NCBI RefSeq assembly: GCF_009931435.1
Contig: NZ_CP043414.1
DNA from: Escherichia coli
GTDB taxonomy: Bacteria > Pseudomonadota > Gammaproteobacteria > Enterobacterales > Enterobacteriaceae
Length of the DNA: 64,000 nucleotides
Strand: one strand, 5' to 3'
The notes beneath the pieces were generated by a model. That model was not told where the DNA came from. It ran no database searches and saw only the letters and a list, made by a program, of their open reading frames with translations. The translations under genes were made by a program, and so were the position numbers. This document shows, piece by piece, positions 51,772 to 57,275 of the stretch (its first letter is position 1; each line of letters starts with the position of its first letter).

Positions 51772-52719
51772 ATGCGTTTATTTTTTTCTCTGCTGATACT
51801 GTTGTCATTTTTTTCCCGTGCAACAGAACCTGTTCAGGTATTTACTGATGATTTAGGGCGCAAAGTCACTGTTCCTGCTCATCCAAAGAGAATTGTCTCT
51901 TTACACGATCTTGATATCACTATTCCTCTGATTGAGCTCGGTGTACCTCCTATCGCCAGCCACGGGCGAACTCGGCCTGACGGTAGCCATTTCATTCGAT
52001 CTGGCGCGTTATTGACAGGTGTCGACTTTGATAATTCATCGATCGCCTTTATTGGTACCGCTGATATTGATATTGAAGCGATTGTGGCGGCAAAGCCTGA
52101 CCTGATCATCACAGAACCGACCCGTAATACGCCCATTGAACAACTTGAAAAAATTGCGCCCACGGTGAGCATTGATCATCTCAAAGGGGGCGCGCCAGAA
52201 ATCTATCGCAAGCTGGCAGAACTTACAGGAACGCAGTCGCAGCTGGCGATACTTGAACGCCGCTATCAGGCACAAATCAATGCGCTGAAGGCGACGCTGG
52301 ACAGCCAAAAAATAACGGTATCGGTGATTCAGGCAAACCAGGGAAAAATTAATGTGATGCATAGCTATCATTCGCTGGGGCGGGTATTACGCGATGCTGG
52401 TTTTCGTTTTCCGCCGCTGATTGAGAGCATTCCTGAAGGTGGGCGAATGGATGTGAGCGCGGAGCGTTTACCTGAACTGGATGCCGATTTTGTTTTTGCA
52501 ACCTGGCGCGGTGACACCGGGGGTAAACCTCAGGATGAGCTGGCAGCAATGGAAAAAGTCATGCCGGGATGGTGTCAGTTTCTGACTGCCTGTCGTTCCG
52601 GGCGTTATGTGCTGATTTCTCGTGAAGAGGCAATTTCTAACTCCTTTGCATCTCTGGGGCTGATGGCTGCGCAGATACAATCACAAATTGCAGGGCGACC
52701 TCTACCGGAGGCTAAATGA
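51772..52719 (+). CDS. Periplasmic siderophore-binding protein (class III, FecB/FhuD-like)
   Basis: ORF track 51709..52719; start MRLFFSLLILLSFFSRA at 51772 with gggag SD; signal peptide. Confidence 0.8.
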   Translation: MRLFFSLLILLSFFSRATEPVQVFTDDLGRKVTVPAHPKRIVSLHDLDITIPLIELGVPPIASHGRTRPDGSHFIRSGALLTGVDFDNSSIAFIGTADIDIEAIVAAKPDLIITEPTRNTPIEQLEKIAPTVSIDHLKGGAPEIYRKLAELTGTQSQLAILERRYQAQINALKATLDSQKITVSVIQANQGKINVMHSYHSLGRVLRDAGFRFPPLIESIPEGGRMDVSAERLPELDADFVFATWRGDTGGKPQDELAAMEKVMPGWCQFLTACRSGRYVLISREEAISNSFASLGLMAAQIQSQIAGRPLPEAK

Positions 52720-53604
52720 TCCAGAAAGATAAAGCGCGGGTTGATATTTTTGGTGAGCGTTTTCGCACTCGCGCGAGTCAGTTAACGCCTGGGTTAAGAG
52801 CTGTCGCCAGCTACATTAATGAGCATCGTGAAGTGGTACTCGAGCAAACGGCGATGGAAATTGCGGCCACGTTGAACACTTCCGATGCCACAGTTATCAG
52901 GGCTATACAGGCCCTGGGGTTTGCCGGGCTGCGTGATCTGAAACGCACTCTGGAACAGTGGCTTGGTCCAGCCCTTAGTTCCAGCGAAAAGATGTCTACG
53001 ACGGTGAGTAACTTGACGAGCGATGTTAACACCGCAATCGACTTTGTTCTTGAAGGGCATTTGTATACCTGTAATGTCCTGTCAGAGCCTGAAAACCGCC
53101 ACGCGCTTGCGCAAGCTGTAGCGTTGTTGGTGCAGGCACGGCAAGTCGCAATTTTTGGCATTGGCGCTTCGGGTATTCTGGCGGACTATACCGCACGACT
53201 ATTCAACCGCATAGGTTTGCCTGCCACGGCACTAAACCGTACGGGTATTGGCCTTGCCGAGCAACTGATCGCGCTTCAACGTGGCGATGTTCTGATCATG
53301 ATGGCGCAAAAATCTGCGCACCGGGAAGGGGTGACAACGCTTCGTGAGGCGAGGCGGCTGGGGAATCCCTGTTATTTTGCTGACAAACGCGCTGGATTCA
53401 CGTTTTAGCAAAGACGCCAGTATCGTGATTCATGTTCCGCGCGGGGATGAAAAAGGGAAAACGCCGCTACATGGTACGGTATTGTTGTGTCTGGAAATGA
53501 TTGTCTGGTCGGTAGCTTCCGCAGTGCCGCAGCGTGCGGTTAAAACCATTAAGCGAATTAACGATTTCCATCGAGGACTGAAAACGGGAAGAAAGAATGG
53601 CTAA
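52716..53604 (+). pseudogene. RpiR/MurR-family regulator (HTH_6 plus SIS domain) interrupted by a +1 frameshift near 53357..53362
   Basis: ORF 52716..53408 ends in NPCYFADKRAGFTF; ORF 53344..53604 in the next frame continues the SIS domain as GIPVILLTNALDSRF...; the two join across a gggg/aa run. Confidence 0.7.
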
Positions 53605-53993: not shown

Positions 53994-54575
53994 TTAACCA
54001 AAAATTTCCACAAGATGCTTGCGATATTCTTCAGTATAGCGGGGAACATCAGGCATTTTTATCACGTCATTAGCGATAAATGTCGGTAGCGGTTCCATAC
54101 CGAGGAATTGGTTTGCTTTATGGAACGGCAGGTACACACCGTCAACACCAACGCCGTGGAAGAACTGATCTTTTTCGGTGAAGGCTTCCATTGGTGCGTT
54201 CCAGGTCAGGGAAAGCATATATTTTTTGCCCTGTATCAGGCCGCCGGAACCGTATTTTTTTGATGGATCTTTGCGGGTACGACCATCGCTGGCATACAGA
54301 GTCCCGTGACCTTCGGTGAATACATCATCAATATATTTTTTCACTGTCCACGGCGCGCCCATCCACCAGCCTGGCATCTGCCAGATCACCACATCAGCCC
54401 AGAGAAAGTTTTGTACTTCGGCTTTGACATCGTAGTCGCTCTCGGCGCGAACAATACGGACATCATGCCCGAGGTCGCGCAGCGTGCCATCCGCGACTTC
54501 GGTCAGGGTGTCGTTCAGTTGACCATTGGAGTGGGCGAATTTTTTCGCGCCGTTGATAATCAGGATGTTGCTCAT
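53994..54575 (-). CDS. mdaB: NADPH:quinone oxidoreductase
   Basis: ORF track 193 aa MSNILIINGAKKFAHSNGQLN. Confidence 0.9.
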   Translation of the reverse strand: MSNILIINGAKKFAHSNGQLNDTLTEVADGTLRDLGHDVRIVRAESDYDVKAEVQNFLWADVVIWQMPGWWMGAPWTVKKYIDDVFTEGHGTLYASDGRTRKDPSKKYGSGGLIQGKKYMLSLTWNAPMEAFTEKDQFFHGVGVDGVYLPFHKANQFLGMEPLPTFIANDVIKMPDVPRYTEEYRKHLVEIFG

Positions 54576-54891
54576 TTTTTAACCTCAAGGTGAGACGTTT
54601 GCCGACTATAGTACGTCACAGAGCGGTACGGTGAAATTAGCAAAATGTGCAAAGTCTTTTGCGAATTTAGCAAAAGTCTGATCTTGCTCCGATTCACCGA
54701 TGCAGGATAAATATTTTCTGAAAATGACAATACTGATAGCCATTCCTCATAATTCCTACTCGCACCGGATTAATTTACAGGTTTGGTTCGGTTTTTTGGG
54801 GATTAAAAATATGGCGTTGGATAAGTAAAAATGAAAATATCAACGCGTCACGTTGATAATTATAAATGGATTTTTATGAGCGTGCTAACAT

Positions 54892-55224
54892 ATGTTAAAG
54901 CATAAAATTCAAACAATATTTGAAGCTCTGTTATATATAGTGCTTACTTATTGGTTAATAGATGCTTTTTTTGCATTCAATAAGTATGACTGGATGCTTG
55001 AGTCGGGAGACAATATTTGCAGTATACCTTCCGTTTCAGGCGAAGATCGTATATTGCAAACAATGATTGCAGCATTTTTTCTTCTGACGCCACTTATTAT
55101 TCTTATCTTAAGAAAACTCTTTGTGCGAGAAATCTTTGAGTTTTGGTTATATGTAATCTCGCTCGTTATTTGTTTGGTTTGTGGTTGGTGGCTTTTTTGG
55201 GGACGGTTTATATTTTGCTATTAA
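54892..55224 (+). CDS. ygiZ: Inner-membrane protein
   Basis: ORF track 110 aa, 3 predicted TM segments. Confidence 0.7.
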   Translation: MLKHKIQTIFEALLYIVLTYWLIDAFFAFNKYDWMLESGDNICSIPSVSGEDRILQTMIAAFFLLTPLIILILRKLFVREIFEFWLYVISLVICLVCGWWLFWGRFIFCY

Positions 55225-55269
55225 TAAAATCTATGAGAGTCGTTTTAACGGCTCTCATAGACAGAGAAG

Positions 55270-56619
55270 TTACCAGCTTACTTTCGCCTCAAATCCACCT
55301 TGTTCCGCATTCCCAAACTCAACATTCATGCCATGCAGCTTGGCGATTCGCTGGACAATTGAAAGCCCAAGTCCACTGCCGGTAGCGGTTTGTCCGGGTG
55401 GGCGATAGAAGCGTTCGCCAATTCTCGCCAGTGCCTCTGGTGTCACACCGGGGCCGTTATCCCTCACGATGAAATTATCGGCATTCAGCGTGACGTCCAC
55501 CACGCTACCTTGTGGACTGTAGCGCACGGCGTTATCCAGCAAATTTCGCACCAACAAACTTAGCAATAGCGGTTGTCCGGTGCGTTTGATGCCGTGGGCA
55601 TTGAGTGTCAGTCGCACGTCAATTTTTGCCTGCTGCGCCGTGTGGTAAATATCCATCACCGACGATTGCAGGAGATCTTCAAGCGGGATCTCCGCGACGT
55701 CCTGAAGGTTATCCAGTGAGTCCAGCCGCGATAGCGTGAGCAGTTGATCAACCAGACGAGTAGCACGATCGATCCCGGAATGTAATTGGAGCAGCGCTTT
55801 TTTCCGCGCCTGCGGATCATCGTCAGAGAGCTGCGCAACTTCGGTTTGCACTTTCAGCGCCGTTAACGGGCTTCGTAGTTCATGCGCTGCGTCGGAGGTA
55901 AAGCGTCGTTCACGAACCATCATCGCATGTGTGCGGGCGAACAGTTGATTTAGCGACTCAACCAGTGGACGCACTTCGCTGGGTACGCCCGTCGCGTTTA
56001 GTGGTTTTTCCGAGTCAGGGTCACGCATACGTAGTGCCAGCGCCAGTTTGTTCAGCGGCGCGAGTTCACGACCCAGTAGTACCATCATGATGATTAACAT
56101 AATCGGCAGTGCGACAAGCCACGGGATCAATTGCCCGGCAACAATTGCCAGCGCCATGTCTTCGCGGTATTCCCATTCCTGACCAACAACGATGCGATAT
56201 TTGCCATCAGGTGAGGTCATCCAGACAAAACGCCAGGGATCGTCTTCACCGACCAGTTGCCCGTCAGCAAAACCTTCCCGTTGATAGCTATAGGGAATAT
56301 CTTCTCCGTTATCCCCATCATTAAGGACCATTCTGCCGTCGTGGGTAAAGATGGCAAAGGTCAGCGCATCGTCATCAACATGACCGTGTTTTAATTTATT
56401 TGGCGTCTGTGCCATGCGATCCGCCGCGTTGATTTCGTTGAGATCGAGCGTACTTAACCGTTTGGCAAACAGCATCAGTTGGGTGTCGAACAACTCATCG
56501 ACGTTATCCGTTGTTTGTTTCCAGGCGACAAAGCTGGAAAGCAGCCAGGTCACCGAGGCCAGAATTAAAAAGATTAGCGTCAGCCTGACTCGCAGACTAA
56601 GACGTTGGGTAAATTTCAT
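55270..56619 (-). CDS. qseC: Quorum-sensing sensor histidine kinase
   Basis: ORF track 449 aa; H-box AAHELRSPL, HATPase motifs. Confidence 0.9.
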
Positions 56620-57275
56620 TTCTCACCTAATGTGTAGCCAATACCATGAACGGTACGAATAAAATCACTGCCGAGTTTGCGTCGCAGATGATGTACATGC
56701 ACTTCAACGGCATTACTGGTGACCTCTTCGTCCCAGGTATACAGTTTCTCTTCAATCAGTTTGCGCGGCAGTACCCGACCAGCGTTACGCATCAGTAATT
56801 CCAGCAGGGCAAATTCTTTTGGTTTCAGCGTTAAGGGTTCGCCAGCCAGCGTGGCGATACGTTTGCCGGGGTCGAGCATGACGTTACCGTGGCGCAGCTC
56901 GTTGCTGGCCTGGCCGTTGGTTCGGCGCATCAGAGCTTCCAGCCTGGCGGCGACTTCTATCAACGCAAAAGGTTTACACAGATAATCGTCAGCTCCCAGA
57001 CGCAGCCCTTCTACACGTTCCGCCAGCGCATCGCGCGCAGTCAGGATTAATACCGGCTCACGCTGACCTTTTTCTCGCCATTCGCGCAAAATATCGCGAC
57101 CATCCATGCCCGGTAAGGTTAAATCCAGGATCACCGCATCATAAGGTGCGCTATATAGCGCCTCTTTTCCCTGACGACCTTGTGTAAACCAGTCGACGCT
57201 AAAACCCATTTTACTAAGGCCCGTTTTGATGCCGTCGCCAATCAGCATGTCATCTTCTATCAGTAAAATTCGCAT
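56616..57275 (-). CDS. qseB: Response regulator (OmpR family)
   Basis: ORF track 219 aa [15 protein letters not shown]; overlaps qseC by 4 nt. Confidence 0.9.

Follow-up and report, generated by a model that had tools for sequence, protein, structure and literature searches.

Orphan immunity genes that persist after the loss of a type VI secretion effector are a general phenomenon. The Escherichia coli gene ygiZ resembles them: it is the last gene of a conserved hcp-effector-DUF2645 triad and, with hcp and the effector deleted, is retained alone in 61% of E. coli; it differs in that the immunity of YgiZ and the toxicity of the effector, here called X236, are deduced from gene order, fusion partners and fold. 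For X236 the closest described systems are Tse3-Tsi3 of Pseudomonas aeruginosa and the lytic transglycosylases MltE/Slt (PDB 4m5e, 3wa5, 2y8p), which its predicted model resembles in fold and in SLT-like motif residues, but at an identity of only 14-18% and with a partner that, unlike Tsi3, is a small multi-pass membrane protein. A third described system lies in the spacer between mdaB and ygiZ. According to the accessible text of Salscheider et al. 2014 (PMC3950696), the ygiZ promoter is activated by BglJ-RcsB and tightly controlled, being silent without BglJ; its transcription start site (TSS) was mapped by 5'-RACE, and the BglJ-RcsB box is asymmetric, with the core wwTTCykA and a centre 65-68 bp 5' of the TSS. 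The inverted repeat considered here occupies the same spacer, 3' of that mapped promoter; it is unlike the box in form and is sited elsewhere. Finally, there are the template-switched quasipalindromes (Ripley model; Lovett laboratory; Lavi et al. 2018, PMC5941160; Klaric et al. 2020, PMC7202029). The perfecting of imperfect repeats by template switching is an established mutational process in E. coli (PMC7202029, PMC5941160), and the present repeat is similar in being a short imperfect E. coli repeat whose alleles gain complementarity, one gain being a change of two neighbouring bases (CA>TT) for which the other arm serves as template, and in needing no function. It is dissimilar in that switching is deduced from the comparison of alleles, which point mutations and ascertainment could mimic.

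The window, by which we mean the whole 64-kb stretch of E. coli DNA that was analysed, carries the repeat in the following setting.

54838-54858, no strand assigned: inverted repeat TATCAACG-cgtca-CGTTGATA, with 8-nt arms and a 5-nt spacer.
54892-55224, + strand: ygiZ, encoding a 110-aa DUF2645 inner-membrane protein, last gene of the ancestral hcp-X236-DUF2645 cassette and a putative orphan immunity gene.
55230-55261, no strand assigned: inverted repeat with 15-nt arms, 93% complementary, and a 2-nt loop, between the convergent ygiZ and qseC stops; a probable bidirectional terminator.

Positions 54838-54858 read TATCAACGCGTCACGTTGATA, and the arms are fully complementary (8/8), which bears out the original prediction of a perfect 8-bp dyad at this place. 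When one mismatch is allowed the arms grow to 11 nt at 91% (54835-54845 / 54851-54861), and over 21 bp the dyad is near-perfect, with 19 of 20 symmetric positions. Since mdaB starts at 54575 on the minus strand and the ygiZ ATG is at 54892 on the plus strand, the genes are divergent; the repeat ends about 33-34 bp 5' of the ATG, so that the predicted distance of 34 bp also agrees with the gene coordinates. The mdaB-ygiZ spacer is 316 bp long with 37% GC, within an AT-rich island that has a GC fraction of 0.29-0.37 across 54700-55300 as against 0.50-0.57 in the flanks, and the gene neighbours of the repeat are mdaB, ygiN, ygiZ and qseC, the last ending at 55270 with its own hairpin at 55230-61. 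Beside ygiN there is also a MurR/RpiR-family regulator gene (52716-53604), in which an extra base pair at 53364 leaves ORFs of 230 and 86 aa where lineage L014 has an intact gene of 295 aa; the split marks either a pseudogene with a frameshift or an error in the sequencing, and the gene is missing from K-12, where parE abuts ygiN. A further imperfect inverted repeat of 21 nt, 71% complementary (54858-54878 / 54901-54921), brackets the ygiZ start codon and is absent from the minimum-energy fold of the leader.

How surprising is an 8-bp perfect repeat in such a spacer? At least one, with a loop of 3-10 nt, appears in 6.1% of shuffled spacers, and the whole window holds 40 perfect 8-bp arm matches with loops of 3-10 nt, compared with 9.2 +/- 3.5 after shuffling, a count that includes nested registers and collapses by eye to about 20 distinct repeats. 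By chance alone the repeat is thus borderline, and with 64 kb scanned it is not significant. Its half-site symmetry agrees with the 6-10 bp criterion for operators (8/8 in the window allele, 7/8 in the K-12 type). No second copy exists in the 64-kb window apart from a two-mismatch match inside the qseB coding sequence (TATCAACGCAAAAGGTTTACA, 56958-56978), which shares the left 9 nt with the repeat, departs at two positions from TATCAAC-N7-GTTGATA and is most likely a chance match. A metagenome scan with TATCAACG-N5-CGTTGATA gave at least 120 matches on environmental contigs, with unrelated flanks and spacers among the matches listed; these look like chance and are uninformative on an enterobacterial regulon. 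Dispersed elements (REP, MITE or IS ends) were considered and rejected because the segment is single-copy, mapping to a median of one place per E. coli genome and at most two. The motif had not been recognised as a known operator, and this stands: Rfam at a permissive threshold returned no family match above noise, only eukaryotic snoRNA noise, and to our knowledge the repeat matches no operator.

The comparison of locus architectures is what gives the repeat a history. A long haplotype, mdaB-hcp-X236-ygiZ-qseC, is found in E. coli strains Nissle 1917, 2012C-4227 and ATCC 11775, and also in a cryptic Escherichia clade, Citrobacter and Pseudocitrobacter, and is therefore ancestral. Short haplotypes, in which ygiZ stands alone behind a spacer of 316-365 bp, include the window, K-12, BL21, O111, O145 and E. 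whittamii, while in O157:H7 (L005:1501-1610, Z1815) the entire cassette including ygiZ is deleted and 109 bp separate the mdaB start from the qseC stop. Of the 5,426 complete genomes of E. coli, 1,262 (23%) have X236, 3,334 (61%) have the short-haplotype segment, which the other 39% are without, and 4,598 have ygiZ (about 15% lack it). The segment is absent from the long haplotypes and from O157:H7, and the spacer is polymorphic even within the species, at least 80% of it being covered in only 3,320 of 5,425 genomes.

L004:1750-2942; L012, L016-L019 and L031-L038: loci of the hcp-X236-ygiZ cassette.

Outside the mdaB/qseC locus the hcp-X-DUF2645 triad occurs on Serratia contigs beside replication-protein (Rep) genes, which are probably plasmids, and on a Pectobacterium chromosome between pagP and eamA, and from these three settings it follows that the triad moves as a unit. 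The middle gene encodes a 236-aa product with 371 representative relatives. X236 itself has no sequence matches in Pfam, NCBIfam or the PDB, and Pfam SLT is matched, under an E-value filter, by 10 of 77 members of its family; the same domain is also found as the C-terminal part of PAAR, Rhs-repeat and eCIS-core proteins. In the family alignment E82, G85, S112, G114 and Q119 are invariant and R187-Y188-N189-x-G191 is near-invariant, and E82, S112-x-G114, Q119 and Y188-N189-x-G191 resemble SLT motifs. A model with a pLDDT of 93.9 matches the folds of MltE, Slt, MltF, g-type lysozymes and the T6SS muramidase Tse3, with probability about 1.0, TM-scores of 0.45-0.55 and a Foldseek E-value of about 0.02; the assignment needed the 77-sequence alignment, a model from 17 close homologues reaching a pLDDT of only 56.5. 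The domain fusions, the SLT matches, the motifs and the predicted fold thus make X236 a candidate lysozyme/SLT-like T6SS cargo effector, and by the same gene order, fusion partners and fold YgiZ (DUF2645), annotated as an inner-membrane protein, would be its immunity protein. As the third gene of a conserved mobile cassette, ygiZ of K-12 therefore looks like an orphan T6SS immunity gene. Our literature search found no paper mentioning DUF2645; a paper on Hcp of APEC (PMC5874247) was set aside as a source on the cassette, as it concerns a different hcp locus.

On the evidence of profile homology, the segment with the repeat is the scar of a deletion, with one flank homologous to the hcp side and the other to the 3' side of X236. 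Three features describe it.

54576-54842, + strand: homologue of the mdaB-hcp spacer and the first ~8 hcp codons, by nhmmer and junction test.
54843-54891, + strand: decayed remnant of the X236 3' end, which takes in all of the repeat except the outer left arm.
54831-54905, + strand: remnant ORF of 24 codons, MKISTRHVDNYKWIFMSVLTYVKA and a stop, with hcp codons 4-8 fused in frame to X236 C-terminal codons.

A profile of the long haplotypes aligns window positions 54576-54818 with long-haplotype positions 1-244 (nhmmer, E = 5e-51), the 170 bp nearest mdaB (54576-54745) being almost invariant and 54746-54842 strongly diverged, and the junction test carries the homology on the hcp side to the TATCA that ends at 54842. 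On the other side, the X236 3' end (its last ~130 nt) is recognized in L014 (E = 1.1e-6) and in O145 (E = 0.009), and the window segment matches O145-type genomes at 74.6% identity (E = 2e-10). This homology is established only by nhmmer profile search with the O145 and L014 haplotypes as stepping stones; when the window segment is set against the long haplotypes in a simple local alignment, the result is not significant (z about 1-4). In L014, hcp scores 15/17 against 11/17 for X236 to the left of TATCA|GCG, and from GCG rightward X236 scores 18 against 10 for hcp, so the best-supported junction would lie inside the left arm of the repeat (TATCA|GCG), with an alternative up to about 20 bp further left. 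At the peptide level, the L014 remnant MKLSACDADNYK, which ends in a stop, corresponds to Hcp MIYLS (M4 to S8) followed by X236 ARDTDDYKF, when set against Hcp MSNMIYLS and X236 ...NLPARDTDDYKF....

The remnant ORF begins with ATGAAA (54831 in the window), contains the repeat as its codons 3-9 and crosses the ygiZ start codon in another frame. Its length is 26 codons in K-12 and a shortened 12 in O145 and L014, and with its ATG gone in E. whittamii it is not a conserved ORF. Decay has continued around it: K-12-type and window-type genomes have lost a further ~39 bp 3' of the repeat, and lineage L026 has lost the repeat region and kept ygiZ.

The original prediction had named conservation as one check on the repeat, and here it largely fails. 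The exact 30-mer of the window is found in 18 of 5,426 E. coli genomes, and the haplogroups divide into 17 window-type, about 3,010 K-12-type and 306 O145-type genomes. The commonest allele, the K-12 type, is imperfect, its symmetry being broken at the inner position: the 30-mer TATCAACG-tgtca-TGTTGATA, with an inner G.T pair, occurs exactly in 1,808 genomes. In the O145 type, TATCAGCG-tgtta-CGCAGATT, a single pair has changed in compensation (A-T to G-C) while two positions are unpaired, and L014 has six Watson-Crick pairs, one G.U and one A.A. In E. whittamii, a separate species, the repeat is perfect and only the loop differs (cgtga). When the 16 arm positions are compared with the other 122 positions of the scar, divergence is equal in 10 of 10 lineage pairs (Fisher p = 0.22-1.0), and half-site conservation above the neutral background was found in none of those 10 pairs. 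A 40-nt block around the repeat is better conserved, with an invariant fraction of 0.62-0.67 versus 0.38-0.57 in the rest of the scar. The repeat exists only in deletion haplotypes and, to judge from these alignments, evolves at the neutral local rate. Its coding homologue in X236 pairs poorly, with three Watson-Crick and three G.U pairs in E. coli and three Watson-Crick pairs in Citrobacter (counted from the sequences), and relative to the X236 ancestor pair 5-17 reads T-A > A.A > A-T.

The placement of the repeat with respect to the promoter was addressed by reconstructing the TSS from the published distance between box and TSS, as given in the accessible text of PMC3950696, and from motif matches in the spacer. 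There are only two matches to wwTTCykA in the spacer, both on the plus strand (54714-21 and 54751-58).

54708-54721, + strand: candidate RcsB-type box A, TAAATATTTTCTGA, with the core TTTTCTGA at 54714-21.
54751-54758, + strand: candidate BglJ-RcsB core B, AATTCCTA (AATTCTTA in K-12).

Box A (TAAATATTTTCTGA) is conserved in Escherichia, Citrobacter and Pseudocitrobacter, and taken with a -10-like ATTAAT at 54769-74 (AATAAT in K-12) it puts the predicted TSS near 54781. Core B, with a -35-like TTGGTT at 54783-88 and a -10-like element at 54805-10 that is present in all short lineages (AAAAAT in the window, GAAAAT in K-12, GATAAT in O145 and L014), predicts a TSS near 54817-22. The two solutions would fit equally well, and both predicted start sites are 5' of the repeat, which would put it inside the ygiZ 5' UTR (transcript positions +17 to +42 or +55 to +78, approximately), as neither core promoter nor activator site. 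Neither ygiZ nor mdaB is mentioned in the supplements to Adams et al. 2021 and the ROSE paper. So much of the earlier suggestion of a 5' UTR hairpin as concerns the UTR can stand, through the distance rule and the two wwTTCykA matches; a function for the hairpin does not follow.

Elsewhere in the spacer, the block GATGCAGGATAAATATTTTCTGAAAATGACAATACTGATAGC (54697-54745) is invariant in all short Escherichia haplotypes, and Citrobacter and Pseudocitrobacter keep its core TAAAnnnWTTCTGA 5' of hcp. The block looks like a box of the RcsB type, possibly the true BglJ-RcsB site as well as the ancestral control element of the hcp cassette. The mdaB promoter region (54634-54679) contains overlapping repeats, TTAGCAAAA twice and the inverted pair AAATTAGCAAAA / TTTTGCGAATTT, and its core GAGCAAAATGTGCAAAGTCTTTTGC does not differ between Escherichia, Citrobacter and Pseudocitrobacter. 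This region is a far better candidate for a regulator site than the repeat at 54838-54858, perhaps a box of the MarA/SoxS/Rob type.

As RNA, the window allele is predicted to form a hairpin of -8.1 kcal/mol (z = -2.9) on the plus strand and one of -9.3 kcal/mol (z = -3.6), followed by TTTTCATTTT, on the minus strand. The plus-strand hairpin is kept at -6.6 to -8.1 kcal/mol in all four short lineages that have the region, despite 4-6 differences, and is still present when the whole leader is folded; an attenuator on this strand was rejected, as the stem has no U tract 3' of it. The strong minus-strand fold is confined to the window allele: in the K-12 type the stem has an A.C mismatch and drops to -5.7 kcal/mol, and the T run is broken (CTTTCATC). 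Counted over the alleles, 94.6% of pair cells are standard pairs. On the plus strand one pair has changed at both positions in full compensation (A-U to G-C), and two further changes are compatible with wobble pairing; this covariation rests on one event and is equalled by 24 of 500 shuffles, within the null of the pair-counting tool, in which 5-25% of unconstrained alignments give the like.

With moderate confidence, we read the repeat as a neutral quasipalindrome without dedicated function in a pseudogene scar, possibly perfected by template switching and forming a weak UTR hairpin. The course of events would have been as follows. The ancestor carried a type VI secretion cassette made up of hcp, X236 and the immunity-like ygiZ, from which hcp and X236 were lost through a deletion. 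The deletion brought partly complementary segments side by side and joined the opening codons of hcp (...TTA TCA) in frame to some 30 codons at the end of X236 (GCG CGT GAT ACA GAT GAT TAT AAA...), the outer left arm (TATCA) most likely coming from hcp and the remaining repeat from X236. A weak dyad (CTG...CAG) was already there in X236, and a handful of substitutions in the short haplotypes raised its complementarity; among these, the adjacent CA>TT in the right arm mirrors the AA of the left arm, and is the type of change expected from quasipalindrome template switching. The product would be transcribed in the ygiZ 5' UTR from the relic hcp promoter, BglJ-RcsB-activated in K-12, and may fold as a modest hairpin. 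It should affect translation or decay little, since 33 nt separate it from the start codon, which leaves the ribosome-binding region free, and the 5' end is 17 nt or more away.

The main competitor is a hairpin under selection, a leader stem-loop acquired and maintained by ygiZ after the deletion, either to make the orphan mRNA more stable or to tune how the remnant ORF is translated. The retained hairpin, the 94.6% pairing, the path of pair 5-17, the perfection of the repeat in E. whittamii and the better-conserved 40-nt block would all fit weak selection on structure, and one may add that the predicted start sites place the repeat within the transcript, that the stem survives whole-leader folding, and that alongside the one compensatory pair G.U-type changes are tolerated on the plus strand only. 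Template-switch correction would yield the same points of fit, as would ascertainment, the window having been chosen for its perfect repeat, and template switching reproduces "compensatory" patterns without selection. Moreover, the covariation is a single event that shuffles can match, the arms evolve at the rate of the scar, and the stem is weak and AU-rich, standing well away from both the ATG and the 5' end; the repeat has no overlap with the ribosome-binding site, start codon or 5' end and no match to a described RNA family in Rfam. The remnant ORF that such a structure might modulate is shortened in two lineages and lacks its ATG in a third, and L026 has ygiZ without the repeat, which is dispensable there. 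We regard a selected hairpin as unlikely on this balance. More doubtful still is a bolder version, that the hairpin is a regulatory RNA born from coding sequence, shaped out of the fused hcp-X236 remnant by selection, perhaps with the help of template-switch mutation, and that it helps the relic hcp promoter to go on expressing ygiZ as an orphan immunity gene; if it were true, cassette-less E. coli would be protected from toxin-carrying kin.

The original prediction also offered a binding site for a dimeric regulator, and an operator, for instance for a repressor that acts as a roadblock 3' of the ygiZ promoter, has its attractions: the near-perfect dyad, a position just 3' of the predicted TSS, and a promoter described in the accessible text of PMC3950696 as tightly controlled and silent without BglJ. 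But no regulator gene adjoins the site, the only known regulator of this promoter, BglJ-RcsB, binds an asymmetric box elsewhere (PMC3950696, same text), and the sequence arose from coding DNA within the genus. Nor does the distribution of the motif help: the window has only the two-mismatch match in qseB, the metagenome matches to the exact arms have unrelated flanks and spacers among those listed, the arms are as divergent as their surroundings, the commonest allele is asymmetric at the inner position and the O145 type is so at two more. An operator is improbable for these reasons, and that part of the prediction was not upheld. On the minus strand the repeat is flagged as terminator-like, with a stem of nine pairs, a 3-nt loop and then TTTTCATTTT; an intrinsic terminator there could insulate mdaB from antisense or qseBC read-through, and it would account for the strongest of the predicted folds and for the T5 run that also follows the minus-strand stem in E. 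whittamii (read from the sequence). Against it, no minus-strand gene ends here, the stem has only three G-C pairs, and about 3,010 genomes of the K-12 type have the mismatched stem and the broken T run; furthermore, the qseC 3' end already has its 15-bp hairpin, and with a likely bidirectional terminator at 55230-55261 a second one at 54838-58 is unnecessary. A minus-strand terminator is very improbable, and the same must be said of a site for IHF or another nucleoid protein in this AT-rich, likely H-NS-silenced region. For IHF one can cite TATCAAcgcgTCA, one mismatch from the IHF core WATCAANNNNTTR, an A-rich tract 5' of it, a match of the relaxed pattern WATCAANNNNTNR to 54838-50 and the low GC of 54700-55300, but there is no match to the strict consensus and the dyad is left unexplained. 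The IHF consensus is highly degenerate, and a one-mismatch match in AT-rich DNA is therefore expected by chance.

If the repeat is a neutral quasipalindrome, then in itself it matters little, and the lesson is that a perfect palindrome before a gene can be a rare allele of a pseudogene scar and not an operator. The part worth following is the cassette relic. The gene ygiZ, of unknown function in K-12, appears to be an orphan immunity gene of an undescribed family of Hcp-linked lysozyme/SLT-like type VI effectors, a reading that provides a directly testable function for it. By the same token, the published BglJ-RcsB-activated "ygiZ promoter" is probably the relic promoter of an hcp cassette, and this reading points to a reason for the activation of an AT-rich and likely H-NS-silenced locus by a cryptic partner of RcsB.
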